This document shows, in pieces, positions 19,306 to 42,412 of a stretch of 64,000 bases of DNA. The stretch is from an uncultured Candidatus Cloacimonadota bacterium (lineage in GTDB: Bacteria > Cloacimonadota > Cloacimonadia > Cloacimonadales > JAJBBL01), in NCBI GenBank assembly GCA_964464175.1, contig CAYXFD010000013.1:8391-72390 (forward strand), written 5' to 3'. A model generated the notes under the pieces. That model saw only the letters and a list, made by a program, of their open reading frames with translations, was not told the DNA's origin and did not search any database. Within the stretch, counting starts at the first letter, position 1; every line of letters starts with the position of its first letter. The translations under genes were made by a program, and so were the position numbers.

Positions 19306-20352
19306 TTACTTCAGCAGCAGCATTTTCCGGGTTTTCTTGGCACCAGAGGAGGATTCCAGAGCATAAATGTAAATACCTGAAGAGAAGCGGGCAGCATTCC
19401 AATGATAGGAATGAGAGCCTTCCCCGAATTGTTTTTGCAGTAATTTCTCTCCTTTCGGATTATAGATAGTGAGTACCCCGGTTTCTCCCCAATTTATCGA
19501 AAAAGCGATTGTTGTTGACGGGTTGAAAGGGTTCGGAGAGTTCTGTAATAATTGAGTTTCGGGAAAATCGATTGAGCTGTCGTCATCACTGCTGTTGGGA
19601 AACCAGATCAGTCCGGCAAATTCCGGGTAATCGATAAAGGGATTTCTGTTTTGCTGATATTGATAATAGATGACATCATTACGGTATAGTTCCCTGTCAT
19701 CAACCGGATCTTCTGTATGCCATTGATAGAGAGTTGACAATACTCCATGGTAAGGCTCATTATTGGGGGATGAGGGGGCATAATCAACAAGTTCCAGGTC
19801 AGGTTCGCCAAAGCCTCCTTCATATCTGACTGCCATGTAGAACATCATTCGGGCAACATCACCCTTGTCTTCAGGGCGCGGTTCCCAGGTATAGGTTGTG
19901 GTATAGCATCCTGTCGGACCGTCAGGATCTATGTATTCAATTCCGCCGTTATCGAAATCCTTGTTACCGCGAGCCGAATTGACCGAAATATCGGAAGCCC
20001 GGACATGATGCACATCTGTTCCGGCTCCCATAGAAGTTCCGAAATCACCGTGGGAAACAGCCCAGACATGTTCCCGGTTCCAACCGTTTCCGTTATTGTA
20101 TTCCTGCGCGGCATCCACCGACCAGCCTGTATAGATGAGAATAACGTTAGCGGGATTATCAGGGTCTCTGTCGGTAACCTTAAGGATATCCCATGTTTGT
20201 GAGTAGGAGAATTGAATATGATCTTTGATGATATGGTGAAGAGCTGATTTCAGTTCACCGCCGGTTAAGTTCTCTGTTCCGTTGTAATAACCTTCCGGGA
20301 TCTGAGCCTGCAACAGTGAACCGAGAAACAACAAAACAACAATATATTTCAC
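19306..20352 (-). CDS. Endonuclease I family extracellular nuclease with T9SS-type C-terminal sorting domain
   Basis: It has NREHVWAVSHGDFG and DVHHVRASDISVNSARGNKDF (Endonuclease I / extracellular RNase active-site motifs). The C-terminus is NSPNPFNPSTTIAFSI...GIYIYALESSSGAKKTRKMLLLK. It uses a GTG start with a gggagg RBS. Confidence 0.8.
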   Translation of the reverse strand: MKYIVVLLFLGSLLQAQIPEGYYNGTENLTGGELKSALHHIIKDHIQFSYSQTWDILKVTDRDPDNPANVILIYTGWSVDAAQEYNNGNGWNREHVWAVSHGDFGTSMGAGTDVHHVRASDISVNSARGNKDFDNGGIEYIDPDGPTGCYTTTYTWEPRPEDKGDVARMMFYMAVRYEGGFGEPDLELVDYAPSSPNNEPYHGVLSTLYQWHTEDPVDDRELYRNDVIYYQYQQNRNPFIDYPEFAGLIWFPNSSDDDSSIDFPETQLLQNSPNPFNPSTTIAFSINWGETGVLTIYNPKGEKLLQKQFGEGSHSYHWNAARFSSGIYIYALESSSGAKKTRKMLLLK

Positions 20353-20673
20353 AAAACCTCCCTTTCGTTGAGGCAGAAAAAAAACATGAGGTTATATTCT
20401 GTCCATAAAAATCTTAAAGGGTCTTTTTTGTTTAATGAGTTGTGAAACCGGTTATGATCTTATTAGATATGCACTTATATGAGTATGTGGCAGGCATAGC
20501 AGGCAAGTCTGTAATGCCTGAACAGTTGGCGGAGAGATAAAGCTGCTGAGATATCTGAAAAATAGAAGAAAAGCAAAAAAAAACTTGACCGATTACTCTC
20601 TATCTTACCAATGAACGGCAAATTGCTGATGGCTTTATTTTTTTATGAATGGAAAAAAGGAAATGATCTAATT

Positions 20674-26600: not shown

Positions 26601-27420
26601 GGCAGCAGACCTCTGGTCGATAAAGATCGATCCTACGCAGCTGAACCAGATATTGACCAATCTCTGTATAAATTCCAGAGACGCTATTGAAGGGATTGGA
26701 AAGATAACGATCTTTACTGAGAATGTCACCTTTGATCAAGAATTCTGTGCTGATCATCCCGGTTATAAATGCGGTGAGTTTGTTTTGCTCTCCGTGCAGG
26801 ATAATGGTCACGGGATGGATCAGGAAACTCTTAAGAACATCTTCGAACCCTTCTACACAACCAAGAAAGTCGGTGAAGGATCGGGGCTCGGGCTCTCCAC
26901 GATTTACGGTATCGTTCAGCAGAACGAAGGTTTTGTTAATGTATATAGTGAACTTAATGAAGGGACTATTTTCAAGATCTATCTTCCCCGTGTCGTGAGT
27001 GATGTTACAACTGTTCAAGCGGAGGTAATTCCGGAGAAAGCAGTCCGCTGTGGAAACGAAACAATTCTGTTAGTAGAAGACGAAATGTCTATCTTATCGA
27101 TGCTCAAATCGATGCTTGAAAATTCCGGCTACACTGTCCTGGCGGCAAATTCACCTGAAGAAGCTTTCGGATTGGCAGGTGAGAACAAAGATAAGATCAA
27201 TATGCTGATAACAGATATGATCATGCCCCAAATGAACGGTTATGATCTGGCTCTGAAATTAAAAACCGAGATTTCCGGTTTAAAAGTTCTCTTTATGTCC
27301 GGATACATCGATTATGTTCTTAAAAACGAAAACTCCCTTGATTTCAAGGTTAATTATATTCAAAAGCCATTTTCGTTCAAAGAATTTCTTGCTATGGTTA
27401 GAAATCTTCTGGACAGTTAA
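20674..27420 (+). CDS. Giant hybrid sensor histidine kinase: REC - multiple PAS/GAF modules - HisKA - HATPase - REC
   Basis: The N-terminal receiver is KVILLIDSDD...DLVMLDASL. Repeated PAS and GAF blocks follow. HisKA is AGGVAHDYNNMLGVILGHTEM and the HATPase is GSGLGLSTIYGIVQQNEGF. The C-terminal receiver is ILLVEDEMSILSML...LITDMIMPQMNG. The start at 20674 (MGSCTDKVILL, aaggaa upstream) is preferred; the ORF track start at 20611 is possible. Confidence 0.9.
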   Translation: MGSCTDKVILLIDSDDRAANDLRRVIEKYGYSVIIADSGKKAHEVIDSDTNIDLVMLDASLDKGTDVIATAQSILDKRDLPLIFLTTEGSEHEIRKSENIVTYGFIDKGSKAYLVIATIKTALRIYEIQRKLWTHVNRNAALIRVIPDLLFVIDRNGFYREIYASDDDLLALPPEELIGKSLSAVFSQDAVNSFLESFRVCLETGKLQALEYELTVNKERRFFRARITRFNEDSVLSVVQDITESKKAKNKIESLNSLLLSIRNVNQLIVQEDDLLAVMRGASEILVETWQYLNIEISLIDERTGKISPVTSAGKLGHGDWFVIPEVDGNAPTCINDAVKERRTIELEDYQTYCKDCPYFSIAFPHKKIVIPMLENDQLIGLMCVSTTPEQVFFAEEIELLEEVAADLVYAGKKLKAEQKIKEKNRLLTILNDYSMELSSVTVSNNIYSLISHKLKEITNAKFVSISIYEEKTSSLIVKFTTISEESNKKLSGIIGRKLEELRMKVTPEMYRRITQEVVGDAGSLEETTFGSIPKVVSNMIQKVFGVEWFTGIALMHKESLVGTVVIIGDKETKRPDNEDLKAFAGVTANALQRWKAEKSLLESHSKWQFALEGTGDGIWDWDIENGKVNYSANLKKMLGYEDNDLESTMQQKEKLIHSEDLSHYRKKLQSHLKDKTAFFSDECRMLCRDGSYKWVLDRGKVIRRSAGKSPLRMIGVQTDLSYLKETEQELRESEYRYTTIVNNAYDGIILQNAQGEILTWNKAAARILGISEKRVVGHTSLNREWDTIREDGSAYPKEEHPSMITLKTGKPCRNVIMGFKKRSGKVTWININTSPLFKSEDPQPYAVIISLSDITEIKKADKSLKESELRYRLIFENSKDAMMTLEPPTWRFTSGNSAIFDMFKAKDLAEFTACEPWKLSPEKQPDGTLSEEKAKRMIEIAMRKGSSFFEWTHRRLTGEEFSATVLLTRIEMSGSRFLHATVRDISERKRDETIRIIQANIAHAVSVAESLYELYEIVREELSTLLDTRNCFIAFYDETTGMFSTPFEKDVKDSIKSWAADGSLTGYVLKRKRAILLSKERIEKMAEAGRVRKIGTTAESWLGVPIKIDGKYKAVFVVQNYKNKNAYDKNSVELLRLIAEQLSIYIDHKKAEDKLAEERKQLLSIFDSIDEAIYISDPETYEILFVNKTLKSVFGKDLIGGICYRELQNRETPCEFCTNDKILKNKGSSYNWEHNNLHLQRDFLITDKIIKWTDGRDVRFEIARDFTESKKAQERVKDLNSLLMAIRNVNQLIVQEDDLFKVMQNSCEILLETRQYLNIEISLLDESEEFIRPYATSGEHEKSDWQISLTGEGSVLKCIKETVLTGKSVVVSDPDNYCRTCPEINDDSLHETVVIPISQNERPVGLMRTCMIQGHKITQDEIDLLEEVAGDLGFARAKILAEKSLQSSEELFRNLYENATIGIYRTTPEGEILLANQSLITMLGFESFEELKNRNLEKDYFEARYSRKSFRERLDREGFVKGLETSWRLMNGKIITVLESARVIRDNSGNPLYYEGTVEDITDNKRDAVIKEVQYNIAHAVASAKDISELYEIVRDELAKLIDTTNFYIAQYNVAADEFSSPYFIDERDNIAVWDAKKSLTGYVLKQKKAVLVNKEELLKLYEMREVDLIGEVAANWLGVPVRITGNVWGVIVVQSYEEKDIYDDHSIRILELIANQLSIYIERKLGEESLQESERKQAALLANLPGMSYRCKNDRDWTMEFVSDGCLDLTGYRQEELLLNEKLSFNELIFPEYREMLWEKWQEILARKEDFAGEYKILTKDGQEKWVWEQGSGVYTEEGEVIALEGFITDITERKQAEEDREVLEAKLIQAQKMDAIGRLAGGVAHDYNNMLGVILGHTEMILADMDPHDPNYPNLKEIKKATERSADLTKQLLAFARKQTIFPKKLNLNSSIDDMLRMLQRLIGENIELSWKPAADLWSIKIDPTQLNQILTNLCINSRDAIEGIGKITIFTENVTFDQEFCADHPGYKCGEFVLLSVQDNGHGMDQETLKNIFEPFYTTKKVGEGSGLGLSTIYGIVQQNEGFVNVYSELNEGTIFKIYLPRVVSDVTTVQAEVIPEKAVRCGNETILLVEDEMSILSMLKSMLENSGYTVLAANSPEEAFGLAGENKDKINMLITDMIMPQMNGYDLALKLKTEISGLKVLFMSGYIDYVLKNENSLDFKVNYIQKPFSFKEFLAMVRNLLDS

Positions 27421-29235: not shown

Positions 29236-29279
29236 GAAAAAGAGCGGTTACGGAGGGTGGTAACCGCTCTTGTATTTTG
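29236..29279. terminator. Bidirectional rho-independent terminator between convergent genes
   Basis: An 11-bp perfect stem pairs agagcggttac (29241-29251) with gtaaccgctct (29260-29270) around an 8-nt loop. It is flanked by an A-run on the left and tgtattttgt on the right. Confidence 0.8.
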
Positions 29280-29296: not shown

Positions 29297-31561
29297 TTAC
29301 TTCAACAGCAGTATCTTATGATTAACCTTCAGGTTTTCAGCTGTGAAACGAATAAAATATACTCCGGAAGGAACGTTTCCGGAATTATCATCTACTCCGT
29401 CCCAGACAAATTCTGAGTTTGCAGAGGGAGAACTCTCGATAAGCGTTCTGACTAACTGCCCTTTGGTATTGTAAATCTTCAGGCTGATGGGACTGTTTGG
29501 CGAGTAGTTGATTTTATCCAATGAGATAGTTATGCTGGGATTAAAGGGATTGGGATAAGCTGTTATTCTATCGGAGCGAGAGGGTACCGGTATCAGTATA
29601 TCCTGATCAGTACTTACCCAATACCCGGAACCGGAACCGCCATAAGCTCCCATATCATTTCTTACCGTTCCTTTGGCGGGAAAGAGAGCATATCCGGGAT
29701 TATCCGGATCTTCCGGATCATTATAGGCAACTCCCGGATTACCTGTATCCACAGAGGGTGAACTATCCTCTAAGTACCAGATTGCCGACAAACCGTCAAA
29801 GTTAACACCCGACCCGTCAGAAGGCTGAATGAATAAAGGATCTTCATCAATATTATCTGTTCCTGAAGATCCGCCGCTGATATTGCTGTATTCAATTAGA
29901 GTAACGGAATTGGGGAAACTGGAAAGAGCAGGTTCTGCTCCTCTGATGATGGAGTTACGTATCTGTAAGAAGGAGTTATGGTTGAAGATGTGGAAAGCGT
30001 TAGTTCCCAGGTTTACATTATGGGTAATGGTATTGTTGATAAAATTAACAGCAGCACCTGATTTTACGCCAAAAGCCGAGGAAAATTGCCCGGAGTTGTT
30101 GACGAAGAGATTGTTCTTAACATCAAAGCTTGAAGCATTGATCTCCAGAGCTGCAATTCCGTTTGTGCTCTGATTGTTGGCAAAGATGTTGTTTTGGAGA
30201 GTAATATTATCGGTAGTGCTTATCTTCAAAGCTCCGGGATCATTGCCCCCGGAATTTTGGTAGAAGGTGTTTCCTATTATATTGACCCGGGAACCTGTTA
30301 CGATTAGAGCAGCTTGATTTGCTTTAGAGATATGGCAATTCTTCAGCGTGTTCTCAATCTGGCTGTCTATTATTCTCATCCCCAGCCACCAGGTATCTGA
30401 AGTAAAGACAATCGGTTCCTGCTCTTCAGCGTTAGCATAAAGATACCCTTCAATCGTAATAGAACTCTGACTGGTACGAATTTCAACCCCCGGTTCGATG
30501 ATCAGGAAAGAGTCTTCGGGAACGATAACGTCACCGGAGATAAGATAGGGACTATGAGCTGAATGCCAAGTACCGCCTATGTTTCCGGAGATGCCTTCCG
30601 GGGCTGTCACAACTATGTAGTTTTCCGAAACCAACTCTTCCGTATCAGTTCCGTCAGAGACACGGAGAGTAATGTCATAAGTTCCGGGTTCAGTATAGGT
30701 AAAAGCCGGATTTTGCTCCGTACTGTCGATATTTCCGTCTCCGTTAAGATCCCATTCCCAGGAAACAATATTCTGAGAGGGCATGGAATGGTCATAAAAC
30801 TGAACAGACAGACTGGGTGGTCCCTGATGGACATTGCTCGAAAACATAGGCATAAGCCCGGCAAATGAGGCTTTGGCAGCCTGATGGATAGGGGCATTAC
30901 CGGTCACGAGACTCTGGACAATAACCACTGCGGAAACATTGTATATATCCCAGGAAGTATCAAGATTGAATGTATGCGAGAAGGTTTCGGATTGTCCGGT
31001 TGAGGTCAGATTGAAATTCTGCTGGCTATACGCCTTGACAGAGGCAAAATAGTCAGGATCCATTACTCCGGTCAGGTCGTAAGTCAGAATGAATAATATC
31101 CGGTTGTTGGTTGTCGAAATATTGCCGGTCATAATAGTCTCAGCATTGACGAGTAACTGATTCTGGTCATTAATGGTAAGGTCGAGATTTATCTCGAGGG
31201 GGCTGTTCAGTCCCACTAATTGATTGTAGGCATTCACGTAGTTATTATAGGCATTGGTAGCACCTATAATAGTATTCGTTCCTCCCCATTGAGCATGAGG
31301 CACATATTGTCCGTTATAAAGTCCGAATCTTGTCGAGAAACTGGGGCTGGTGTGAGCACCGTTAGCTTGCCAAATAAGGGGAATGAAATAGGGGAAGTTA
31401 TCAGGGTCATTAAAAAGTTGAGCCAACGCAGACCGCGCTGGGGGGCAACTCGGGCACGTAGTTGACGTGAACATTTCTCCCACGACAAACATCTGTGTGC
31501 CCAGCAACAGAGGTGTCAGCAGGAGAAGAAAGCTTAGAAAAAAGAGAAGCTTCTTCATCAT
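29297..31561 (-). CDS. Secreted protein: N-terminal thioredoxin-like CPxCP module - PKD domain - right-handed beta-helix repeats - T9SS-type sorting domain
   Basis: The N-terminus is VVGEMFTSTTCPSCPPARSALAQL and the PKD domain is WEWDLNGDGNIDSTEQNPAFTYTEPGTYDITLRVSDG. Repeated N-rich beta-helix turns follow (NNIFANN, NNLFVNN, INNTITHN). The C-terminus is AYPNPFNPSITISL...GVYFIRFTAENLKVNHKILLLK. Confidence 0.75.
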   Translation of the reverse strand: MMKKLLFFLSFLLLLTPLLLGTQMFVVGEMFTSTTCPSCPPARSALAQLFNDPDNFPYFIPLIWQANGAHTSPSFSTRFGLYNGQYVPHAQWGGTNTIIGATNAYNNYVNAYNQLVGLNSPLEINLDLTINDQNQLLVNAETIMTGNISTTNNRILFILTYDLTGVMDPDYFASVKAYSQQNFNLTSTGQSETFSHTFNLDTSWDIYNVSAVVIVQSLVTGNAPIHQAAKASFAGLMPMFSSNVHQGPPSLSVQFYDHSMPSQNIVSWEWDLNGDGNIDSTEQNPAFTYTEPGTYDITLRVSDGTDTEELVSENYIVVTAPEGISGNIGGTWHSAHSPYLISGDVIVPEDSFLIIEPGVEIRTSQSSITIEGYLYANAEEQEPIVFTSDTWWLGMRIIDSQIENTLKNCHISKANQAALIVTGSRVNIIGNTFYQNSGGNDPGALKISTTDNITLQNNIFANNQSTNGIAALEINASSFDVKNNLFVNNSGQFSSAFGVKSGAAVNFINNTITHNVNLGTNAFHIFNHNSFLQIRNSIIRGAEPALSSFPNSVTLIEYSNISGGSSGTDNIDEDPLFIQPSDGSGVNFDGLSAIWYLEDSSPSVDTGNPGVAYNDPEDPDNPGYALFPAKGTVRNDMGAYGGSGSGYWVSTDQDILIPVPSRSDRITAYPNPFNPSITISLDKINYSPNSPISLKIYNTKGQLVRTLIESSPSANSEFVWDGVDDNSGNVPSGVYFIRFTAENLKVNHKILLLK

Positions 31562-31574
31562 TACTCCTTTTGAT

Positions 31575-33632
31575 TTAATTAACGATTAACATCTTTCTTA
31601 TTACCGTTTGCTTAGTATTGGTTAGTTTGTAAAAATATACGCCGCTGACAACTTTTCTATTTCTTTCATTTTTCCCATCCCATATAACCTTACCTATATT
31701 ATCGGCTGAAAGCTCCAAACCTGTCAAGGTTTTAATCAACTGTCCTTTGACATTGTGAATAGTAATGACAGCATCGTTAGCGAGTTGACCGTCTGGTACA
31801 GAGAAGGGGATAACGACATAATTACCTGTTGTCCGGTCGGTTCCTGTCTTATTGAGGAAAAAGGGATTGGGATAACTCGGAAGGAGTTTTAGGGAAGTAT
31901 CAGTTAGCGGGAGTGTGTCGTCATCAGTGTTTGTAGTAGAAAACCAGGCTATAGAATTCAAAAGCATATCGGAACGGTCATTGTAGTTGTCAATTGCTTC
32001 GAAACCGAAAGCTAAATAGATAATCTTGGCATTTCTGCCGTAGTGTAGAGAACGAATACCGGCAACTGAGTCGTCTCCGTTATGATAGTGAAGAATGGGA
32101 AAGGAACTATCTCTGAGAGGGGCGATGACTTCCGGTGAATATTGATTATCAGCACCGTCACCCTCGGCGATCGCAAAGTTCAAGCCATCTGTGATTAGAT
32201 CATCTTCCACTCCACTGACAGACCGGCTGTCAGTATCTGCGGTAATTAAGTCGGACTGGAGGTAGTCATGATAAAAAGAGGGATCAGAATAGAGTGGATT
32301 AGAAATCAGGTCTTTTCCGATATTCTGTCCGGAGAGGAATAGGTTGTATCCGTTATCGAGAAACGAACGTAAGAATGATGTTTCTGTGAGGGTCAGGGCA
32401 GGTTCCCGTTCTCCTGTAATCCAGATCAGGGTATCGAAATAAGGGGTTATTGAATCCGAAATATCAGCATAGACCGTGTTCCAAACCCCGTAGGAATATT
32501 GGCTCTCTTCTAATACAGCAGTGGAATAGTCTTCGTAATTCGACCACCCGTCACTGTCAATAATGAGCAGGTCAACATCATTTGTTAGATAGCGGAAGGG
32601 GATGTTATAATCATCAGGGAAAAGAGAGGATTGAACTGTAAAATGATAGTCCATCATTCCGGCTTCGTCGGGGATGACATTAGCATGAAAACTTCTGACT
32701 TCACCTGATTCAAGGGGGAAATCATAAGGTCCAATATAACACAGACCATCTTCGTCACAAAAAGAGGTAAGCCAGCCAGCGGGAGCATTATCGATCATAA
32801 TATTGATTGTCAGATCAATAGAGTCTCCAGGATTGAATAAAGAAAAGTACTCAACTTCAAATAATCCCGTTGCAGGTCCGATATCCATTCTCTTGTTCGG
32901 TACGACTGCTCTCAGGTTATATGCAGGAGAGGGGTAAGTCGAAGCAGCCTGAACAATATCTCCCTCTGAATCAACGACATAGACTAAGGCAGAGAGATTG
33001 TTTTCATCCCAGGAAGGTTCAGTAGAAAAGGAGGTATTCAGGGTAATGGTATTATTCTGACCGGAGAGCGAAAAAATCTCTTGTTCTATCGTCCTTGCTA
33101 AATTTGTCAGTTCATTTGAGACGTTATCTTCTATCAGAATAAAGCGGGTAGTGGCATTTTGAAACTCTTCTGTGTCCGATAACATAGTGATCATGATCTC
33201 AATGTTTCCTGAGGCAGTGTCAAAATTCAAAATCTCTATCTGCAAGGGCGAAGGTGAATAATAATCCTTCTCCACGAGTGCCTGGTAGGGGAGACCATTG
33301 CTGAGCGGAAAATTTACCCCGGTTATTCTTGCCTTGCCGTTAACTATAAAGGAAGGGAATTCGCTGACCGAATATTCCTGGACAAGATTTTCGATTTCCG
33401 GTGCTGAGTACTGACCACTGTTCTGAGAGGTATAATAACGAACAGGAATAACATCTCCGGAGGAATACCTGTTCTGTAATTCATCAATACCGCTATAGGC
33501 TTCGGCAGCATCAGGGCTCCAACTGGCAGTAATCAATTCTGCTACAATCAGTCTCGGCTGGTAAGGGAGTTCCCCAAAGAGAAGGGTGAGTGATATACTA
33601 AAAAGCAGGATGATCAATAAGAAAACTTTCAT
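31575..33632 (-). CDS. Secreted protein with a degenerate (Cys-less) thioredoxin-like N-terminal module and T9SS-type sorting domain
   Basis: The N-terminus LIVAELITASWSPDAAEAYSGIDEL aligns with the CPxCP module of the two neighbouring paralogs but reads WSPD. The C-terminus is SYPNPFFLNK...GVYFYKLTNTKQTVIRKMLIVN. The middle region is unassigned. Confidence 0.65.
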   Translation of the reverse strand: MKVFLLIILLFSISLTLLFGELPYQPRLIVAELITASWSPDAAEAYSGIDELQNRYSSGDVIPVRYYTSQNSGQYSAPEIENLVQEYSVSEFPSFIVNGKARITGVNFPLSNGLPYQALVEKDYYSPSPLQIEILNFDTASGNIEIMITMLSDTEEFQNATTRFILIEDNVSNELTNLARTIEQEIFSLSGQNNTITLNTSFSTEPSWDENNLSALVYVVDSEGDIVQAASTYPSPAYNLRAVVPNKRMDIGPATGLFEVEYFSLFNPGDSIDLTINIMIDNAPAGWLTSFCDEDGLCYIGPYDFPLESGEVRSFHANVIPDEAGMMDYHFTVQSSLFPDDYNIPFRYLTNDVDLLIIDSDGWSNYEDYSTAVLEESQYSYGVWNTVYADISDSITPYFDTLIWITGEREPALTLTETSFLRSFLDNGYNLFLSGQNIGKDLISNPLYSDPSFYHDYLQSDLITADTDSRSVSGVEDDLITDGLNFAIAEGDGADNQYSPEVIAPLRDSSFPILHYHNGDDSVAGIRSLHYGRNAKIIYLAFGFEAIDNYNDRSDMLLNSIAWFSTTNTDDDTLPLTDTSLKLLPSYPNPFFLNKTGTDRTTGNYVVIPFSVPDGQLANDAVITIHNVKGQLIKTLTGLELSADNIGKVIWDGKNERNRKVVSGVYFYKLTNTKQTVIRKMLIVN

Positions 33633-33764
33633 TCCAACCTCCTTCGGTTTTGTTCTCTAAAAAATTATAGCGCTATGGCTTGCAGCCATTTTCTTTCACT
33701 AAGATCGCTGAACTGTGGCATTTGTTCCTTCGGCAGCTTTGTCAGTAAATACCGTTTCCAGTGA

Positions 33765-35207
33765 TCAGAATCTCGTTATCAGGTCTAACCGTAATCCTTG
33801 AAACGGGGTAGTATAATAGCATACTCCGCTTCGGCAAACTTTGCCTCCTCTCTCTTCTCCGACAAATAACTTCAGTTCGGTATGTGAAAAAAGGTCTGCT
33901 GTCGCTTCCAGTCCAAACCAGTTTCGGTTGTCTGCCGGGTTACTTAGTTCATTGAATTCCAACTCTGATATCAAAGAGAGTGACAAGTTCCTGAAAAAGA
34001 TATCGAATTGCAGGAGCGGCTTGTAAATTTCCCTCTCTGAATCCTGCCTGGTCTCTTCCCGATATCCGAATTCAGTGCGAAGATGTACCGGTAAAGTGAA
34101 AAGAGCAAAATCGAAAAGCAGTGCCGGAGTAATCTCCTTGTACCAGAGTTCCCAATCTTTGTCTATTGTCTCGAACTGAGCATATTCCAAACCTAAGATG
34201 AAACTATCAAAATCTTTTCTCCCTTCGATAAAGAGATCACTCTGCCTGATAGAAAAACTGCTGTTCCAGGCTTCGGAATAGATAACTGAAATCTCGGTAG
34301 TGAAGTCGGGAATATATCTGAGTTGCCCGAGTAATCCTTCTTCATCGGCTCCAGGCTGAATCCTCTCGGAGAGAGGTTCTTCACTGGCATTCAGAGTGGG
34401 GAGGTCATTCATTCGATCATCGAAACGGTCATATCTCTTATAACCCGAAGAGATGGTGAAATTTCCAAGATAAGTGTTTGCCATACCGTAAAGAGCTTGT
34501 CCCCGGAATTCGCCGGCTATATTCCTGTAGGTCTTTGTCTCGGCATATTCAGCATAAAAATCGTAGAGATCGGTAAGCAGCTCGATCCTGCTTCCGGCGG
34601 TAATTCTGGTGCTGTACTTACTATCGATTCGTTGAACCTCTTGCCTGGTGAAACTGAAACCTAACTGGTTAAACCAGAGAAAGGGGAGTGAATAATCCAA
34701 CCCCCCGATGATATCCTTGCGGTTAACATTATTCTCACTGGGAAGAGTGGCATATAGTGCCTTTAAATTATGATCTCCTGAACTTAAGCGTAAGTTCAGG
34801 CCGGTTAAGCGGGTATCGTGATCATAAGCCTTATCTCTGAAAGCTCTCATTATAATACCGTTACCGAAGAATTCGGAAAAAGAGCCGGCACGTACTCTGG
34901 AAGCAGGTAAACTGATTTGGATATATCTTTCATCCCAGCGGTAATCAAGGTCACTATGATGTAATACTTCGATAGCCTGAAACTGATCATATTTCGGTAA
35001 TTCGGCGATAAATGACATACCGGCTTCGATATTTTTATAGTTCAATCTTAGGGTAGTTTCGTTGTAGAAGTAATTGGAAAGGGAATCTTCTGCTGCTTTA
35101 TAAATGAACTGAGCTTCATTGATCCCCGACAGGCTGAAGTCTCCGTAACAGAGGCTGAGAGAGAAGAATACCAGTAAGAAGAATGATAAGAATACACTTT
35201 TATTCAT
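33765..35207 (-). CDS. Putative outer-membrane beta-barrel protein (hypothetical)
   Basis: It has a signal peptide and alternating amphipathic, aromatic-rich strands throughout. The C-terminus GLRLDLITRF ends in Phe, the OMP signature. Its start overlaps the TlpA-like gene stop by 4 nt. Confidence 0.55.
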   Translation of the reverse strand: MNKSVFLSFFLLVFFSLSLCYGDFSLSGINEAQFIYKAAEDSLSNYFYNETTLRLNYKNIEAGMSFIAELPKYDQFQAIEVLHHSDLDYRWDERYIQISLPASRVRAGSFSEFFGNGIIMRAFRDKAYDHDTRLTGLNLRLSSGDHNLKALYATLPSENNVNRKDIIGGLDYSLPFLWFNQLGFSFTRQEVQRIDSKYSTRITAGSRIELLTDLYDFYAEYAETKTYRNIAGEFRGQALYGMANTYLGNFTISSGYKRYDRFDDRMNDLPTLNASEEPLSERIQPGADEEGLLGQLRYIPDFTTEISVIYSEAWNSSFSIRQSDLFIEGRKDFDSFILGLEYAQFETIDKDWELWYKEITPALLFDFALFTLPVHLRTEFGYREETRQDSEREIYKPLLQFDIFFRNLSLSLISELEFNELSNPADNRNWFGLEATADLFSHTELKLFVGEERGGKVCRSGVCYYTTPFQGLRLDLITRF

Positions 35208-35761
35208 CTTTCTTTGTTTAACTCCTCTTGCTCTTGGTGAGGTATAGATTCCTGTTGTTCAGACAGGATAGACAATTGCCTGGTGATTTCAGCTTTGAGT
35301 TTTTCTTCGTCTCCGCGGGTGTAACCTGTATGTTCGTACAATATTTCCCCGGAGGGGCTGATAAGAAAAGTATGGGGAACGGTTGTAACCTGAAACTGCT
35401 TCATGATCTCCTGGTTGGTATCAAAGAGAGTGACAAAAGTATATCTTTGTGAACGGATAAGGCTTTTGGCTCTGTTGACGGAACGGGGATTATCTATACT
35501 GATCGCTAAAAGAGTTACTTCATCATTCTCGGAATGAATCTTCTCCAGTTCCGGTAAAAGTCTCAGGCAGGGAGCACACCAGCTTGCCCAGAAATCAATG
35601 ATGATCAGATCAGAACCGAGATAATCGGTAACATTGATCTCCTGATTATTGATATCAGGCAGGGTAAAACTCTGAATAGCCTCCCCCTGAAGCAGAGTTA
35701 TGCTTAGCAAAAGACTGATTGTAAGCAAGATTAAATGACGCATTATTAACCTCCTGTTCAA
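35204..35761 (-). CDS. TlpA-like periplasmic thiol:disulfide oxidoreductase (thioredoxin fold)
   Basis: It has a signal/anchor sequence and the active site IIDFWASWCAPCLRLLPELEK (WCxxC). It is ~185 aa. Confidence 0.85.
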   Translation of the reverse strand: MNRRLIMRHLILLTISLLLSITLLQGEAIQSFTLPDINNQEINVTDYLGSDLIIIDFWASWCAPCLRLLPELEKIHSENDEVTLLAISIDNPRSVNRAKSLIRSQRYTFVTLFDTNQEIMKQFQVTTVPHTFLISPSGEILYEHTGYTRGDEEKLKAEITRQLSILSEQQESIPHQEQEELNKER

Positions 35762-35775
35762 TGCAGGTCAAAATA

Positions 35776-36912
35776 TTAGTGCCGGCTACCCGGTATCTCT
35801 ATTTCATATTCATATACATTATGAACGAAACAGGTATCCTCATCATAGTTATCCTCAACCGTCTGGATCCAGACGACCAGACGAGAATCATTAAAACTGA
35901 AGTCCGGAATCGATAACTCTGCGTTAAGGATACTGTTTAGATCATCGGCAGAGAGTGAAACACTACCTTTGGCTATAACTACATTTCGGCAAGGTTCTCC
36001 AGCTGCATTATTGACGTCTGTCTCCTTATCAATCAAGGCATAACGCAACTGCAGATCCGGCTGGTCTGTGATCATCGTTTCAGCGGTCAGAGCAAAAGAA
36101 AGGACTTCTTGGTTTATGGTGTAATCAAATCCCGTTAGGAGATAATCTGCCTCCAGAGCAAAATACTGAGAGATAGCAAAATTGTAAGCAGGATAACTTT
36201 CTGTGGGATGACCGCCCGAGATCTTAAGCTGTCCCTGAACGATTCCTATTGGTAAGGAAAGAGGCAGTTCATAGTATTCGAGAATGTCGTTGTGACCAAA
36301 AGCAAGCTGGTCGGAAATATGATATTCAATATAATAGAAAGCCTCTCCATAGAGTTGTTTCAAATCATTAAGAGCAGCTTCAACATAAGGACAATTAGGA
36401 CACCAGGTTGCAGTAAACAGTTCTACTAAAACTTTTCTATCAAAGGTTTCAGTCCCATTTTGCCGGTTACCTATGAAAAGAAAGTTATGCTCTTCATCAA
36501 GGCAATATTCAGTGAAAGTTGTATCTATTCCGGCAGTAGTATCCCGGATGATCAGACTGAAGGTGAGTGAAATGCCCCCGCTGTCGGGGAGAACATGGAA
36601 AATCTGGAGCTCTTCCGTTACAAGCTCTGTTAAACCGTGGTAATAGTTTTCAACATCACTTTTTAAGCTCCCGTCATTGAGATAATCATCACTGTAATAA
36701 ACCATTACCGGGGTCAGATCATTCCCGAGAAGAGCAGTCCGCAAGATTTCGGTAAATCCTTCCAGATGTTCGTCAAAAGCCTGAGATATGTCATTTCCGT
36801 TTGGATCAGCGGGCTGGAAAGAATTATCGAATCTGTTGCAGGAAAAAAGCAGCAATGCTATGAGAAATAGGCATAACTTAAAAATATTATTGCTAAACAT
36901 CGATTTATTCAT
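35776..36912 (-). CDS. Lipoprotein with thioredoxin-like CPxCP module (Omp28-related-like)
   Basis: It has the lipobox LIALLLFSC and the module VLVELFTATWCPNCPYVEAALNDLKQLYG, which is paralogous to the N-termini of the 754-aa and 685-aa proteins. Its start overlaps the DsbD 3' end by 8 nt. Confidence 0.65.
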   Translation of the reverse strand: MNKSMFSNNIFKLCLFLIALLLFSCNRFDNSFQPADPNGNDISQAFDEHLEGFTEILRTALLGNDLTPVMVYYSDDYLNDGSLKSDVENYYHGLTELVTEELQIFHVLPDSGGISLTFSLIIRDTTAGIDTTFTEYCLDEEHNFLFIGNRQNGTETFDRKVLVELFTATWCPNCPYVEAALNDLKQLYGEAFYYIEYHISDQLAFGHNDILEYYELPLSLPIGIVQGQLKISGGHPTESYPAYNFAISQYFALEADYLLTGFDYTINQEVLSFALTAETMITDQPDLQLRYALIDKETDVNNAAGEPCRNVVIAKGSVSLSADDLNSILNAELSIPDFSFNDSRLVVWIQTVEDNYDEDTCFVHNVYEYEIEIPGSRH

Positions 36913-38621
36913 CTATTCGCTCCAATACATCAAAGACCATTCTTTTGGTTATTATTTCCGGCAGTAACACCGGCTCTTCAATGCCGGGCAGATAAAAGAC
37001 ATAGACTGGGACACCGACTCTGCCATAACTCTGTATCCAGGAGAATATGGTTTCATCATAACTGGTAAAATCTGCGATAAAGAGCTCTACTCCCTTTCTT
37101 TCAAACGCTGCCTGAACGTCATCAGCATAAAGCACTGTAATCTCATTCGTATAGCAGGTAGTACACCATTTCGCAGTAAAATCTATAAAGACGGGAATTC
37201 CTGCTTCCTGAAGTTCGTGAATTCTTTCGGGTGAAAAAGTCTGCCATCTTCCCTTGACCATACCAGATTCTGATTCCTGTTCGAAAGTCTGTTCCTGAAA
37301 ACGGAGAGTGTTATTGCCTACCATAACGACCAGAAGAATGGCAATCAGCAGGGCGAGAATCTTTTTAAAGGTTGAAAACTCAGGTCGGAAATATCTTCCG
37401 ATTATCCTGAAGGCTACCGCAAGAGAGAGGAGAAAGAAAACTACTGAGAATAATCCGCTTCCGCCCAATTGATAATAGAGAACCTGCAGCATTTTGATAG
37501 CCCAGAAGAGGAGTAAAAATCCCATAAGCTCTTTCAGGACATTCATCCACTCTCCCGGTTTGGGCAGTTTACTAACAAATCTCGGTTTAAAGGCAATGAG
37601 GATAAAGGGCAGAGCCATACCCAAGCCTATAAGCAGGAACATAGCGAGAATTATCACTGGTCTTTGAGCAAAGGCAAAAGCTAAGGCAGCACCAAGGATC
37701 GGGGCAGTACAGGGAGTACCGAGAAGAACAGCAAAAACTCCCATTAAAGAACGAGCCGGCCAATCCTCTTTTACTGGTCATTTTGGCAGTAACTTTAGCA
37801 TCGGGAAGGGAAATGACGAAAACATCGAAGAGCGAAAGCGAGAAGACAAAGATGACAGAGGTAAGAACAAGAACAAAGATCGGGTTCTGGAACTGAAATC
37901 CCCAGCCGACATATTCTCCCGACGCTTTCAGAATGATAACAATTATGGCTAAAGAGAGAAAAGAAAAGAGAATCCCTAAGGAATAGGTGAGAGAATTGAG
38001 GGTAATCTTCTTTTTATCCGCTTGACTGTCCTTGATCAGAGTAAAGGCACGAAGAGAGAGGACAGGAAGGACACAAGGAGTAAGATTGAGTATTATTCCC
38101 CCTAACAAGGCAAAAAGAAGATAGAGCAGGATCGGTTCCTGAGTTGGAGAGGTTGAGGATGGCAGAACTTCCAGGGTCGTCTTCAATTCTTCCTCTTCCG
38201 GCATTATACAGGTGCCTGTGTTATCATAACAGAGCTGGTACCCTGCCGTTATAGCTAACTCGTAACTGCCGGGTTCGGCATCATGAGTGATGTTAAGCTC
38301 CCGGGTTAACACAACTTCTCCATAGAGATGAATGAAACCGTCAGCTTCTATCTTTCCCGTGGGATAGACTATCTCTTCGAGAGTAATTCCCGGTATTTCA
38401 GCAACCTCGAAGAAAAAATAGTCTTCCTGCAGGATCTGGTGCAAACCTTCCGGAAAGACATAGGTTACCTGGATTTTTCCTCTGCTGCCGGTCTCGATTA
38501 CTTCCGGCTCTAATCTTACCGATACTTCAGCTTGTTGTGAAAAAAGAAAGCTGCAGGCGAATAAAAACACTATAATTATGCTGACTCTGTAGCGCAAACT
38601 CTTCATATTACTTAACTCCAT
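36905..38621 (-). pseudogene. dsbD: Thiol:disulfide interchange protein DsbD (alpha-beta-gamma), split by a 1-nt frameshift
   Basis: The upstream ORF (37587-38621) carries the alpha-domain GYQLCYDNTGTCIMPEE and the first TM Cys LNLTPCVLPVLSLR. The downstream ORF (36905-37744) carries the second TM Cys LLGTPCTAPILGAALAF and the gamma thioredoxin VFIDFTAKWCTTCYTNE. The frames join at ...GLAGSFFNG|VFAVLLGTPC if one G is removed from the GGG at 37740-37742 (coding strand). Confidence 0.8.
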
Positions 38622-38643: not shown

Positions 38644-40374
38644 TTATTCAGTTTTTTGGTCAGCTTTAAAGAATTCTCCCGCATTCTTTTGCCAACTTAG
38701 TTTGTGAGCGTACTCTCTTGCCTGCTCGTATAGCTGCTTTCTCATTTGTTCATCCTTGGGGAGAAGATCGAAAATATCTCTACCCTGCTTTCTGAACAGC
38801 TTGTTTTCCAAATCTGTTCTTTCCTGGGCAGAGATATTGAGGAGAATCTGGTCGTCAGTGAGGTCAACTTCGGAAAAATCGATCCAATGATAAGGTTTTA
38901 GTGATGTTTCTCTGAAACAGGAATCAAGTAAAAAAGAACATCCGCATTGTCTGCTAAGAATAGCGGTACCTCCAAAGGGAACTGTTTCGATTTGAGCTAT
39001 GCCGAAAGGTTCATAAATAGAAAAGCCAAGTTCGGCATCAGAGCCGTAACGTAAATCGGAAAATGTTGTTCCTTCCGGTATCCTCTTTCCGGTTACTTCC
39101 TGTGAAAAACCGTATTGATTGATGAAAACCCCTTTAATGGATATTGATTTAGCATTGAATAGTTTCAGGGAATTATAAACATCCCTTTCATAATCTATCA
39201 GATCGGGATAACCCTCAGTATGAAGGAGCGGCCAGCCGTATTCTTTCTCCATTCTCATAATATCATTCGGGTCTCTGCCACTGCTGATCAAACTCGATAA
39301 AAGAATATAGAACCCTTTCAAATTATGCTCTGAAAAGTAGTTATCCATCTCTTCCAAAAAACGGATATCCCGCCATAACCCTTTACTGATTACTAATCTT
39401 GTAACATGAGTAAAGATAACTTCCGGAGTGAAATTGAAGAGAGTTTCACAATAATCTGCTAATCTCTGACGCGATACAGTCTTCTTTTCGTAGTCCATAC
39501 TGTTCGTAGGGACGCCGTTATAGACGACATGGATCCTTTCCGCTTTCACTTCAGGCTGTAAATATCTGTATTCTTGCTTTATCCAGTCCCCGACAGCAAT
39601 AATATCATCGAAGTGGATGGCCAGTTTAATTAATTCATTACGGTAATTGTTTTTCTGAGAACCGAATCTCTCTTCCAGAGGAATTTGTCTTTCACTATCC
39701 CTGAGCATTAAGTTGTAAAAAGTGATGTCATGACCCGGAATTCTCTCTACCAAAGCACGAGCAGTGGAAACCTCATGAGCATAGAAATACGTCCGACAGC
39801 TCTTCTTTTCTGTTAACAACAGCTTCAAACAGCTTGGGACCCCCATATATTCATGAGAAAAAGCTGTGATAACGTCTTCAGAACCGGTCAAAGACTGCAT
39901 AATATCAACGAACGGTACTGCCAGCCGCACGTATTGCTCACAATCCCAATCATTATAGGTGTCCGACTGAAACCGGAATTTCTCCCACAGCTGATACTTA
40001 AAAGTGTTAAGAGGCTCAATTCTTAGCCTCTTAATCCCAACTATGAGTAACTCAACTTCCGTACTTTGATCGGGATGGATCTCATCATAGATATCCTTTT
40101 TGCCGTAAACTATATCAATATGATATTGCTGGCACAAATCCCGTAAGTGCGGAAAATCTTCTTCGATACCGTCTAATGAAGAGAACAGGACTCGAGAGTC
40201 TTTGCCTAATCTTTCCGGATGTAAAGAACTCTGATCATCGAAAAGAGGTCCGTAAAAGATCGTTCGGGAGAAATTCTGCTGATAAGCTTCAGTGTTACAT
40301 AAACCGCTCAGAACTGAACCGATACCCCCGATTTTTTTGGCAGCCTCATGACTGATATGTATTCCGATATTCAT
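38644..40374 (-). CDS. Glycosyltransferase, glycogen-synthase-like (GT-B fold)
   Basis: The N-terminus MNIGIHISHEAAKKIGGIGSVLSGL resembles the E-x-A-x-K-(V/I)-GG-(I/L) start of GT3-type glycogen synthases. It is 576 aa. The family assignment is tentative. Confidence 0.45.
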   Translation of the reverse strand: MNIGIHISHEAAKKIGGIGSVLSGLCNTEAYQQNFSRTIFYGPLFDDQSSLHPERLGKDSRVLFSSLDGIEEDFPHLRDLCQQYHIDIVYGKKDIYDEIHPDQSTEVELLIVGIKRLRIEPLNTFKYQLWEKFRFQSDTYNDWDCEQYVRLAVPFVDIMQSLTGSEDVITAFSHEYMGVPSCLKLLLTEKKSCRTYFYAHEVSTARALVERIPGHDITFYNLMLRDSERQIPLEERFGSQKNNYRNELIKLAIHFDDIIAVGDWIKQEYRYLQPEVKAERIHVVYNGVPTNSMDYEKKTVSRQRLADYCETLFNFTPEVIFTHVTRLVISKGLWRDIRFLEEMDNYFSEHNLKGFYILLSSLISSGRDPNDIMRMEKEYGWPLLHTEGYPDLIDYERDVYNSLKLFNAKSISIKGVFINQYGFSQEVTGKRIPEGTTFSDLRYGSDAELGFSIYEPFGIAQIETVPFGGTAILSRQCGCSFLLDSCFRETSLKPYHWIDFSEVDLTDDQILLNISAQERTDLENKLFRKQGRDIFDLLPKDEQMRKQLYEQAREYAHKLSWQKNAGEFFKADQKTE

Positions 40375-40651: not shown

Positions 40652-42412
40652 ATGAAAATTAGTACAAGATTTTCTTTCTTTATTTTACTCTTGGTTTTAT
40701 TGCTTGGAAGTTCTACTTTTTTATGGTCTCAATCACTTACTTTTGATATTACCGATCTTCAGGGAGTGCACCGTTGGGCTCCGATAAAAGGACCTCATAT
40801 CTTTACTGTCTATACCCCGGCTCCCGTGATGGTTTTTGCCTGGTCAGGTTTTGACTGGTTAGATGGGGTTACAGAGTCGGTGTTTATCGAATCAGAAGGG
40901 GTTGATGATCTATTGGGAGTTGATCCGGTAGTTGAAATGTATGTTAGCGGCTTTGATCTGCACTCTCTGGAATTCGTCAATGTCGTAAATTTTGGGGGTG
41001 ATCCCTTTACCCCGGGCGAGAGAGGGGATTTCCGTATTTATACAGGCGGCACAGCAACTATGCATTTGAACGGGGTCAAGATCGCCGAAGCTTCTAATTT
41101 TCAGGTAGATATCCTGGTCTCATATCCTGTTATCGGCGGAGGTCCCGGACAGCTTGCTCAAGCAGTCGGGGTAGCAGATATAAACATGGCAGAGACAGAT
41201 CCTGATTGGGTAGTGAGATTTGATAACGGAAGCGGACAGTTTGAATTCGAATTTGAAAACTTTACTGCCGGGATCGGTCCTAATCACGATACAACCGTAA
41301 CAATTTTAAGCAGGGATGTTCACACAACAGTTGATGATGCTATTTTAGTTGCCGACGATACGGTTGATTTTGATGCCTCAATAGGCGTAGTAGTAGATTT
41401 TGAATTCACTGATCCGATGGTCTATGATGAAGGGGCTGGTGAGGTAGAAGTTGTTAAAACGCTAACGGTAAATAAAATATATGGAGATGCAGGTGGAGTA
41501 CTTCCTGCAGAAGTACTTTCCTTCAATAGCCAATTTTATTACCGTTTCGGAGCTGTTTTAGATGGTTTTCAATGTGATATTACTTTTGATCTTTCTGAAG
41601 TTCCTAATCTTCCCACTGATCTGGAAGATGTTGTGTTTATGAGAAGACCGAAACGAGCACCTCAGGATTATGTTTGGGAAGTTATACCTAATGAGATAGA
41701 AATTCTCTCAGTCACACCACCAAGACTGTTAGTAAAGGATGTTACCGGTTTTAGCGAGTGGGGAATCGGCTTCTTAACAGACGATTCATTACCGGTAGAA
41801 TTGAGTTCTTTTACCAGCAGTGTTACGGCTAACGGTTTTGTAGAGCTGACCTGGATAACAGAAAGTGAAAGCAATATGCTCGGTTATCATATTCATCGGG
41901 CTGAAGATAACAATGTAGCCTTGGCAGAAAAGATTACCGGCGAGGTAATTAATGCCGAAAATTCATCGACCACGGTTTATTACAACTATACCGACAAAAA
42001 TTTACCTACAGCCGGTACTTACTACTATTGGTTAGAGTTTGTGGAGTTAGACCTGACTTCCGGTTTCCACGGACCAATCTCTGCAGTAGTATCTTTTGAT
42101 AATGATGATGATACTCCGGGAATAGTATATAGAACAGAGTTGATCGGTGCTTTCCCTAATCCTTTCAATCCTGAAACTTCGATCGAGTTCACTTTAGCTG
42201 ATCCTTCCCATGTTACTTTGAGAATCTTTAACAGCAGGGGACAATTGGTTAAGGAGTTACTTGCCAATGATCAATTAGCTGCAGGTTTTTACTCGGAAGT
42301 TTGGGATGGAAGGGATAACTCAGGGGCTTCAGTAGGCTCAGGAGTATATTTCTACCGGATGAAGGTTGATAATAGTTACGATATGATTAAGAAGATGGTG
42401 CTTGTTAAGTAA
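40652..42412 (+). CDS. Secreted hypothetical protein: LPVELSSFT module plus T9SS-type sorting domain
   Basis: It has a signal peptide and SLPVELSSFTSSVTANGFVELTW...GYHIHR...YYYWLEFVELDLT. The C-terminus is IGAFPNPFNPETSIEFTL...GVYFYRMKVDNSYDMIKKMVLVK. Confidence 0.75.
   Translation: MKISTRFSFFILLLVLLLGSSTFLWSQSLTFDITDLQGVHRWAPIKGPHIFTVYTPAPVMVFAWSGFDWLDGVTESVFIESEGVDDLLGVDPVVEMYVSGFDLHSLEFVNVVNFGGDPFTPGERGDFRIYTGGTATMHLNGVKIAEASNFQVDILVSYPVIGGGPGQLAQAVGVADINMAETDPDWVVRFDNGSGQFEFEFENFTAGIGPNHDTTVTILSRDVHTTVDDAILVADDTVDFDASIGVVVDFEFTDPMVYDEGAGEVEVVKTLTVNKIYGDAGGVLPAEVLSFNSQFYYRFGAVLDGFQCDITFDLSEVPNLPTDLEDVVFMRRPKRAPQDYVWEVIPNEIEILSVTPPRLLVKDVTGFSEWGIGFLTDDSLPVELSSFTSSVTANGFVELTWITESESNMLGYHIHRAEDNNVALAEKITGEVINAENSSTTVYYNYTDKNLPTAGTYYYWLEFVELDLTSGFHGPISAVVSFDNDDDTPGIVYRTELIGAFPNPFNPETSIEFTLADPSHVTLRIFNSRGQLVKELLANDQLAAGFYSEVWDGRDNSGASVGSGVYFYRMKVDNSYDMIKKMVLVK

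Follow-up and report, generated by a model that had tools for sequence, protein, structure and literature searches.

A conserved gene cluster pairing a TlpA-like reductase with a DUF6029 barrel in Cloacimonadota and its possible role in a reducing pathway directed to the outer membrane

The stretch of DNA considered here, 64,000 nucleotides in length and in the following referred to as the window, stems from an uncultured Candidatus Cloacimonadota bacterium (assembly GCA_964464175.1, contig CAYXFD010000013.1, positions 8,391 to 72,390) and carries on its minus strand a tight cluster of genes centered on a TlpA-like reductase and an outer membrane barrel of the DUF6029 family. The cluster is headed by dsbD, which is encoded in two pieces (N-terminal fragment, 37587-38621; C-terminal fragment, a separate open reading frame (ORF) in another frame, 36905-37744), followed by the genes for a lipoprotein of 378 residues (35776-36912, overlapping dsbD by 8 nt), the TlpA-like protein (35204-35761, after a gap of 14 nt), the barrel of 480 residues (33765-35207, overlapping the preceding gene by 4 nt) and two secreted proteins of 685 residues (31575-33632, after a gap of 132 nt) and 754 residues (29297-31561, after a gap of 13 nt). 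An earlier note prepared from the sequence had described six minus-strand genes at this place. Reading frames, strand and spacing were as described there, and the count has to be raised to seven ORFs because DsbD is made up of two overlapping ORFs in different frames. All of the motifs it had quoted are present, i.e., ELFTATWCPNCP in the lipoprotein, WASWCAPC in the TlpA-like protein, EMFTSTTCPSCP in the 754-residue protein, ELITASWSPDAA in the 685-residue protein and the terminal Phe of the barrel.

Conservation of the arrangement was assessed in a scan that took in one genome per species and delivered 80 loci, nearly all of them labelled Cloacimonadota, in which the window proteins were then sought; the counts comprise only those loci that were long enough to judge. 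The expectation that the gene order would recur in relatives was borne out for dsbD, lipoprotein, TlpA and DUF6029 barrel, which follow each other in this order across the Cloacimonadota species loci. TlpA is encoded directly upstream of the barrel in 76 of 76 cases, the lipoprotein is present in 67 of 69 and DsbD in 57 of 58. Further downstream, an Omp28-type protein with a C-terminal type IX secretion system (T9SS) tail adjoins in 47 of 66 loci, and in 8 further loci a short sorting-domain protein is found instead. Ca. Syntrophosphaera thermopropionivorans W5 carries the intact cassette of five genes. The gene for the 754-residue protein, on the other hand, does not belong to the conserved core, as counterparts were found in 11 of 44 loci only.

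The core is also found outside Cloacimonadota: a profile search of 1.84 billion representative proteins (library clustered at 50% identity, E up to 0.001) retrieved 1347 relatives of DUF6029, and a metagenome scan with an alignment of 10 distant members yielded 80 loci, 73 of them non-redundant, with 25-33% identity to the query. TlpA is adjacent to or fused with the barrel in all 53 assessable distant loci, eight of which are fusions (L130, L132, L136, L141, L146, L147, L149, and L150), and in 129 of 129 assessable loci overall. A TlpA-like reductase obligately paired with a DUF6029 barrel would form the core of the system. Two fusion loci were also found among the Cloacimonadota (L025:9473-11404 and L019:3793-5718), and three TlpA::DUF6029 fusion proteins (P0096, P0101, and P0111) belong to three separate 50%-identity clusters; in these proteins, an AhpC-TSA/Redoxin domain at about residues 22-146 precedes the barrel. 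As judged from their sequences, fusions of TlpA and barrel arose in several lineages. Genes of the Omp28 family accompany 24 of 37 distant loci, some of their products bearing T9SS tails, PEGA domains or dockerins, and some of the distant Omp28 neighbors pass the cut-off of PF11551 (39 and 47 bits).

The barrel protein matches Pfam family PF19494 (61.4 bits vs. a cut-off of 27), as do all 43 barrel homologues found, and its earlier description as a predicted outer membrane beta-barrel ending in Phe is in agreement with this match and with a confident AlphaFold model (pLDDT 88.8, pTM 0.79). The DSSP string of the model contains about 24 long strands, joined in turn by long loops and by turns of 2-3 residues, and there is no plug domain in the same chain. 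In Foldseek comparisons, 24-strand usher pores of the FimD/PapC type rank first (TM about 0.55), and other large barrels including MtrB (rank 19) and TonB-dependent receptors are among the further matches. A cysteine pair, C458 and C463 (GGKVCRSGVC, a CX4C motif at 33819-33848), lies in a small hairpin of the last long loop and is invariant in 23 Cloacimonadota sequences as well as in members of only about 20% identity. In outer membrane barrels, termini and short turns reside on the periplasmic side and long loops outside. On the basis of the model, the loop with the cysteine hairpin would thus be extracellular or folded into the lumen.

The partner of the barrel is a TlpA/ResA-like periplasmic thiol-disulfide oxidoreductase of 185 residues that combines an AhpC-TSA/Redoxin-type thioredoxin fold with a WCxPC active site (WASWCAPC, residues 58-65, 35567-35590) and a signal peptide, visible as a hydrophobic N-terminus. 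The ORF call uses a TTG start; the ATG at 35743, used in public gene calls, is the probable true start. Pfam domains AhpC-TSA, Redoxin and Thioredoxin_8 score well above their cut-offs, and WCxPC is invariant in 82 homologues. Its scores against the NCBIfam equivalog models of ResA, StoA and TlpA stay below their cut-offs, so that the protein has to be addressed as a member of the family and not as a named orthologue. Judging from the adjacency of the genes, it may act as a reductant recycled by DsbD or CcdA.

The lipoprotein (lipobox LLFSC, 36838-36852) consists of a tether, an alpha/beta N-domain, a thioredoxin domain and a beta-sandwich. Its active-site motif (residues 164-175, 36388-36423) includes C171 and C174, which are invariant in the homologue alignment, and all homologues that could be aligned possess CxxC (68 of 70 ORFs). 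An AlphaFold model based on a 34-sequence alignment (pLDDT 89.7) places the alpha/beta N-domain at residues 42-148, the thioredoxin-like domain at 161-248 and the beta-sandwich at 258-370. The top solved structures in Foldseek are HBP35 (5y1a, E 3.8e-10, 258 aligned columns) and a DUF1223 protein (2axo, E 1.5e-9); at the sequence level, the family profile matches thioredoxin 1fo5 (E 1.5e-5) and marginally HBP35 (E 0.075). For the lipoprotein, the thioredoxin fold that had been predicted for the CPxC modules therefore holds, because the structural match to HBP35 and DUF1223 is joined by a profile match to true thioredoxins. Sequence searches with the N-domain returned no Pfam or PDB match. In the tether, a motif C-x-R-F-x-x-x-F that begins with the lipid-modified cysteine (CNRFDNSF, residues 25-32, 36760-36840) stands out, C25, R27, F28 and F32 being nearly invariant. 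The segment is of low confidence in the predicted structure, consistent with a flexible tether, and its sequence may serve as a docking or sorting signal.

The 754-residue protein is composed of an Omp28/HBP35-like thioredoxin module, a PKD domain (PKD_4, 42 bits), a region resembling a beta-helix and a C-terminal sorting domain of type A, whereas the 685-residue protein comprises a degenerate Omp28-like module, a middle domain with a CX5C motif (FCDEDGLCY, residues 291-299, 32736-32762), an extra domain of about 260 residues and a T9SS-type C-terminal domain. Sorting domains had been assigned to both proteins. The tail of the 754-residue protein clearly exceeds the family cut-offs (TIGR04183, 36.1 vs. 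23 bits; PF18962, 32.6 vs. 27 bits) and qualifies it as candidate T9SS cargo; that of the 685-residue protein stays below them, as do its weak matches to Omp28, FlgD_ig and Por_Secre_tail, and it shares 32% identity with the tail of its neighbor (E 3e-9). No Pfam or PDB match was obtained for the middle region of the 685-residue protein. The active-site motif of the 754-residue protein lies at residues 29-40 (31442-31477), and residues 25-231 match the NCBIfam model for Omp28-related selenoproteins (E 1.4e-17, below cut-off); there is a weak PDB match to DUF1223 (2axo), and a search with the N-terminal module retrieved 7 proteins only. In the 685-residue protein, the corresponding motif (residues 32-43, 33504-33539) is devoid of cysteine.

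Paralogy of the three modules outside TlpA, also proposed in the earlier note, is upheld, with weak similarity in pairwise comparison and with CxxC in two of the three: the N-termini of the 685- and 754-residue proteins are 25% identical (E 2e-4), and lipoprotein and 754-residue protein align around the motif only (E 2e-5). All three touch Omp28-type models. As even the best scores in the window remain below every curated cut-off (PF11551, 22.2 vs. 34.9 bits; NF033782, 27.7 vs. 150; NF045500, 64.1 vs. 200), the proteins are relatives and not members of these families. The modules of the 685- and 754-residue proteins presumably share the layout of thioredoxin domain plus beta-sandwich. The common downstream orthologue in other loci is shorter (about 445 residues); in it, a thioredoxin module is followed by a middle domain that bears an invariant CX5C and by a sorting domain of type A, and all 24 of 24 such proteins pass TIGR04183. 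From the sequence comparison, the 685-residue protein emerges as a longer derivative of this form that lost CxxC and kept CX5C. In 9 of 9 loci with the cysteine-less long form, a CxxC-bearing paralogue resembling the 754-residue protein is retained, just as in the window. The CX5C consensus NYCDExGNCYPG (C284/C290 in the orthologue alignment) resembles the DsbD-alpha motif YQxCxDxGxCxPP; in an hhalign comparison of the two domains, 13 columns around the cysteine pair aligned with a probability of 6%. In the subgroup formed by loci L008-L014, the barrel gene is followed by a gene for about 243 residues (e.g., L013:11444-12175) with a T9SS sorting domain and no thioredoxin module, and a 754-like gene with a predicted selenocysteine lies about 5 kb further downstream.

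In about 30 genes near TlpA-DUF6029 pairs, an in-frame TGA occupies exactly the position of the first cysteine of the Omp28 motif (E-x-F-T-x-x-x-U-x-x-C-P, e.g., EVFTSTSUGYCP), with the frame open on both sides. These include six Cloacimonadota orthologues of the 754-residue protein that carry UxxC in place of CxxC (L013:16998, L014:15889, L022:12353, L031:5516, L037:12343, and L078:1996) and genes in loci L088, L093, L097, L098, L104, L108, L112, L113, L121, L125, L134, L137, and L152. The UxxC genes match the NCBIfam Omp28-related selenoprotein model, in agreement with the name of that family, and are probable selenoprotein genes. Single-sequence folds reveal a GC-rich hairpin about 15-19 nt past the UGA in most of 24 genes. 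RNAalifold produced no consensus structure for this region, and in a count of base pairs, shifting the register by 3 pairs gave a still better fit, as the region is made up of successive GCN codons. Interchange of cysteine and selenocysteine marks catalytic redox residues. The in-frame TGA codons therefore constitute the strongest indirect evidence that the Omp28 modules are active oxidoreductases.

With regard to the inner membrane, the three parts of an alpha-beta-gamma DsbD, already noted earlier, and all six expected cysteines are encoded in the window, but not in one intact gene. The N-terminal fragment comprises a signal peptide, the Ig-like alpha domain with its cysteine pair (LCYDNTGTC, residues 130-138, 38208-38234) and the first half of the membrane domain with the first cysteine motif LTPCVLP (38064-38084); it leaves the frame after 37745 and runs into a stop at 37587. 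The C-terminal fragment continues with the second half of the membrane domain (GTPCTAP, 37700-37720) and the thioredoxin-like gamma domain (KWCTTC, 37154-37171). Pfam DsbD_TM is detected in both ORFs, DsbD_N weakly (19 bits vs. a cut-off of 25), and the C-terminal fragment matches Thioredoxin_7 (E 1.8e-14) and the NCBIfam DsbD model PRK00293 (E 1.4e-26). A profile of Cloacimonadota DsbD proteins matches solved nDsbD structures (3pfu, 1jpe, 5nhi, and 1l6p; E about 4e-4 to 1e-3) and cDsbD structures (E 8e-12). Alpha domain and WCxxC-bearing gamma domain are accordingly in place; the beta domain is not continuous, since a 1-nt insertion cuts between its two cysteine motifs.

The frameshift is located at 37744-37745, where the window has AA and loci L002-L005 show only one A ahead of a conserved Met codon (TTC TTT A ATG GGA in the window, TT(C/T) ATG GG(A/T) encoding FFMG in the relatives); the downstream half of DsbD begins at this ancestral internal ATG. 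A +1 ribosomal slip on GGG-A was considered as a means to restore the frame and dropped, as the relatives revealed FFMG to be ancestral and an A in front of the Met codon to be the additional base. Contigs from other assemblies (one ENA, three JGI samples) match the window with 100% identity along stretches of 3.2 to 9.1 kb, and both of those that reach dsbD (ENA ERZ27252294 and JGI 3300034686) contain the same frameshift. Moreover, the exact truncated product of 339 residues is recorded on 23 contigs from several assemblies. Being shared by independent assemblies and by these 23 contigs, the frameshift represents a real population allele and not a one-off assembly error. DsbD is encoded as a single full-length ORF in 56 of 57 relatives. 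In the organism studied here, the split gene implies that the input step is performed by two half-proteins, is taken over by another donor, or is lost.

A different inner membrane protein heads the Omp28-TlpA-DUF6029 cluster in 14 distant loci, namely a NapH/YccM-like iron-sulfur protein with Fer4_5 domain and repeated CxxxCP motifs (L104:74-991, L093:1083-1985, L119:3588-4400, L025:12892-13755, and 10 further loci). In L019 and L025, it is found beside a stand-alone ORF resembling DsbD-alpha (152 residues in L025) and a second TlpA. Given the alternation of DsbD and NapH-like heads, the redox protein in the inner membrane varies by lineage and the periplasmic and outer membrane part is kept. 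We infer that electrons are supplied by DsbD or by the NapH-like protein.

Taken together, we consider it probable on balance that the cluster encodes a dedicated envelope pathway for the reduction of thiols, and of selenols in relatives, that serves Omp28/HBP35-type proteins at the outer membrane or the cell surface. DsbD would take electrons from cytoplasmic thioredoxin and reduce TlpA and/or the CPNC site of the lipoprotein in the periplasm, and TlpA would act within the lumen of the barrel or where it opens to the periplasm. The pathway would end with Omp28/HBP35-type proteins with CxxC or UxxC as its clients, either lipid-anchored or exported via T9SS and attached to the surface, which in turn might serve as reductants of disulfide-type substrates outside the cell or, in the manner of HBP35, deal with a ligand such as haem. 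The extension of a reducing pathway to the outer membrane or surface had been suggested in the earlier note. As a general idea, it gains support from the adjacency of TlpA and DUF6029, their fusions, the cysteine pair of the barrel, the selenocysteine variants and the exchange of DsbD for NapH-like heads; its realization with the DsbD present in this strain is called into question by the frameshift.

Several points weigh against this interpretation. The functions assigned rest throughout on sequence, structural models and gene neighborhoods, and the direction of electron flow is suggested by family precedent only. Owing to the disrupted dsbD, the organism studied may itself be unable to operate the pathway in the proposed form, and DsbD is adjacent in 0 of 25 assessable distant loci. 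The extracellular position of the cysteine hairpin is deduced only from the alternation of loops and turns in the DSSP string, the surface location of the lipoprotein is putative, and the T9SS-domain matches of the 685-residue protein fall below the family cut-offs (TIGR04183, 20.3 vs. 23). Scans for promoters and terminators inside the cluster were uninformative on co-transcription. Finally, the habitats are anoxic and the need for a reductase at the surface is not obvious.

A bolder version of the proposal, which we regard as rather unlikely, would make TlpA-DUF6029 the outer membrane counterpart of DsbD. By analogy with the membrane domain of DsbD and with the barrel-sheathed MtrAB conduit, the cysteine pair of the barrel would relay reducing equivalents across the outer membrane: TlpA or the thioredoxin domain of the lipoprotein would dock in the barrel lumen and exchange disulfides with the CX4C hairpin near the outer face, which would then recycle the CxxC or UxxC sites of surface Omp28/HBP35-type proteins. 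Electrons would enter through DsbD, or perhaps through the NapH-like iron-sulfur protein in other lineages. If true, this would be the first disulfide cascade of a diderm bacterium known to deliver cytoplasmic reducing power to the cell surface, and the missing reductant of HBP35-type surface thioredoxins would have a name.

The alternative that survives best, unlikely in our estimation, confines the chemistry to the periplasm. The barrel would admit a small oxidized substrate, e.g., cystine or other disulfides, polysulfide, selenium species or peroxide, which TlpA and the Omp28-type proteins would reduce inside, and the barrel cysteines would be structural. A large 24-strand barrel without a plug domain in its chain would suit such a role, fusion to the barrel's periplasmic N-terminus would place a TlpA right at the channel mouth, and selenoprotein variants are apt for small-molecule redox chemistry. 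It conflicts, however, with the T9SS sorting domains of the Omp28-type partners, which destine them for the surface. Furthermore, it is not obvious why a structural disulfide should stay invariant down to 20% identity or require a reductase as obligate neighbor, and an open 24-strand pore would be very leaky.

Next in rank, and likewise improbable, is a function in biogenesis or anchoring, with DUF6029 as export adaptor or outer membrane anchor for the lipoprotein and the T9SS cargo in the manner of PorP/SprF or Slam barrels; TlpA and DsbD would keep client cysteines reduced until export, and there would be no continuing flow of electrons at the surface. The barrel and cargo genes do adjoin, a 24-strand usher-like pore would be wide enough for folded domains, and the tether motif of the lipoprotein suggests a docking peptide. 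Left unexplained are the invariant cysteine pair in the barrel loop and the frequent presence of a dedicated inner membrane redox protein, be it DsbD or NapH-like, and type A sorting domains normally do without a private barrel.

It is very improbable that the reductases fulfill a housekeeping function in cytochrome c maturation, methionine-sulfoxide repair or Scs-type copper tolerance and are neighbors of the other genes by chance. Homology to TlpA/ResA/CcmG and the public annotation of the fusion proteins as CcmG/DsbE point in this direction, and pathways from DsbD/ScsB to TlpA are known (PMC3322552). On the other hand, no ResB/CcsA, Ccm, Msr or Sco/Cox domains were detected in the cluster ORFs, nor ResB/CcsA-type domains in the flanks, and it is the barrel and the Omp28 modules that recur as partners. 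Least credible of all is a polysaccharide-export porin with unrelated redox genes next to it, a role proposed as possible for DUF6029 on the basis of HHpred similarity to Wzi, itself grouped with 18-stranded porins (Saidi et al., 2022; PMC9603273), and to which the glycosyltransferase-like gene 22 nt upstream of dsbD would lend some color, because this gene occurs in the closest relative only, TlpA is adjacent or fused in every assessable locus, Wzi is not among the 50 best Foldseek matches of the barrel, the model has about 24 strands and not 18, and the neighbors are TlpA and Omp28 genes and not OPX.

The glycosyltransferase-like gene itself (38644-40374, minus strand, 576 residues, with weak Glyco_transf_4 and GlgA-like matches) is co-directional with the cluster and may be co-transcribed with it; in the comparison of 80 loci, it was found upstream of dsbD in L002 alone, and it lies outside the conserved cluster. 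At the other end, a 12-bp GC-rich inverted repeat with T-runs on both sides (29240-29271) forms a bidirectional terminator-like hairpin between the convergent genes for the 754-residue protein and a metallo-beta-lactamase-fold protein, and is probably the terminator of the cluster; a terminator scan found no site of comparable strength between the cluster genes. The downstream flank continues on the other strand with the metallo-beta-lactamase-fold gene and a ThiI-like gene. Rfam and tRNA scans of the window gave no matches. At least seven other ORFs in the window match T9SS sorting-domain models, two of them just below cut-off, e.g., at 10022-12820 (+), 15005-15736 (+), 19306-20352 (-), 40652-42412 (+), and 62928-63935 (-); they include an endonuclease I and a C10 (streptopain-like) cysteine peptidase with inhibitor pro-domain (just below cut-off). 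A surface reductase might conceivably have such a surface cysteine peptidase among its clients. Further genes of note are a reverse transcriptase ORF at the left window edge (132-1238 (+), RVT_1, E 2.4e-24) and genes for a 1090-residue protein with FGE-sulfatase domains (15755-19027), and two giant signaling proteins, a 2269-residue hybrid histidine kinase that contains two receiver domains besides numerous PAS and GAF domains (20611-27420 (+)), and a 1828-residue protein in which a Ser/Thr kinase domain and TPR repeats are combined with a histidine-kinase ATPase domain (57107-62593 (-)).

Provided that the pathway directed to the outer membrane or surface exists, its significance would lie in the fact that the periplasm is regarded as the end point of the DsbD, ScsB and CcdA pathways that feed TlpA-type proteins. 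The cluster ties envelope reducing pathways genetically to HBP35-type surface thioredoxins via the uncharacterized DUF6029 and places the DUF6029, Omp28 and Omp28-related selenoprotein families in a concrete context that is open to testing. It likewise suggests a way in which FCB-group anaerobes could perform extracellular thiol/selenol chemistry on protein disulfides, sulfur and selenium compounds or haem, and the natural fusions of TlpA and barrel are ready targets for structure determination.

The earlier note had found no match to any characterized system. This remains valid for the arrangement, on which we found no literature, nor on Omp28 selenoproteins or type IX secretion in Cloacimonetes; it does not apply to the parts, among which are relatives of HBP35 and Omp28 and the textbook flow of electrons from DsbD to TlpA. 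The barrel family DUF6029 appears in a listed paper (PMC9603273) in another context. What would be new is the extension of an envelope reducing pathway by an outer membrane barrel and surface (seleno)thioredoxin-fold proteins. The likeness to the DsbD/ScsB pathways (E. coli DsbD to DsbC, CcmG and DsbG) resides in an alpha-beta-gamma DsbD encoded beside a WCxPC TlpA and thioredoxin-fold clients, and presumably in the shared logic of a disulfide cascade fed by cytoplasmic thioredoxin. In Caulobacter, ScsB feeds TlpA and a peroxiredoxin (PMC3322552). Those pathways end in the periplasm, whereas the partners here are an outer membrane barrel with a cysteine pair and T9SS-exported proteins, TlpA is sometimes fused to the barrel, and DsbD is missing from the assessable distant loci and frameshifted in the strain studied.

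HBP35 from P. gingivalis is a surface-located T9SS cargo that binds haemin and exhibits thioredoxin activity in vitro, which is abolished by mutation of two cysteines (PMC2907840); its electron source or a linkage to DsbD, TlpA or DUF6029 is not given in PMC2907840 and PMC3120885. The lipoprotein model resembles HBP35 (PDB 5Y1A) in having a CxxC thioredoxin-like domain followed by a beta-sandwich, and the 754- and ~445-residue proteins share the layout of thioredoxin module plus sorting domain. In contrast, sequence similarity is marginal, PKD, beta-helix and further domains are added in the window proteins, and one of the paralogues is a lipoprotein and not T9SS cargo. DUF1223 is an accepted thioredoxin-fold family (PMC3091736). 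Both DUF1223 (2AXO) and the Omp28 family (PF11551, the NF033782 lipoprotein and NF045500) are touched by the window modules at scores below their cut-offs. To our knowledge, no pathway has been assigned to either family.

The likeness of the barrel to MtrAB, LptDE and FimD/PapC is one of fold only, i.e., a large barrel of about 24 strands without a plug of its own; sequence homology, haems and usher domains are lacking here. A partner inside the lumen, TlpA or the lipoprotein, would be conceivable by analogy with these systems. Etrx1 and Etrx2 of Streptococcus pneumoniae, two lipoproteins belonging to the thioredoxin family, receive electrons from CcdA membrane electron transporters. They are surface-exposed and have the methionine sulfoxide reductase MsrAB2 as redox partner (PMC3914529). 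As such, they set a precedent for a reducing pathway with its end point beyond the cytoplasmic membrane, in a monoderm host with different clients and no outer membrane to cross.

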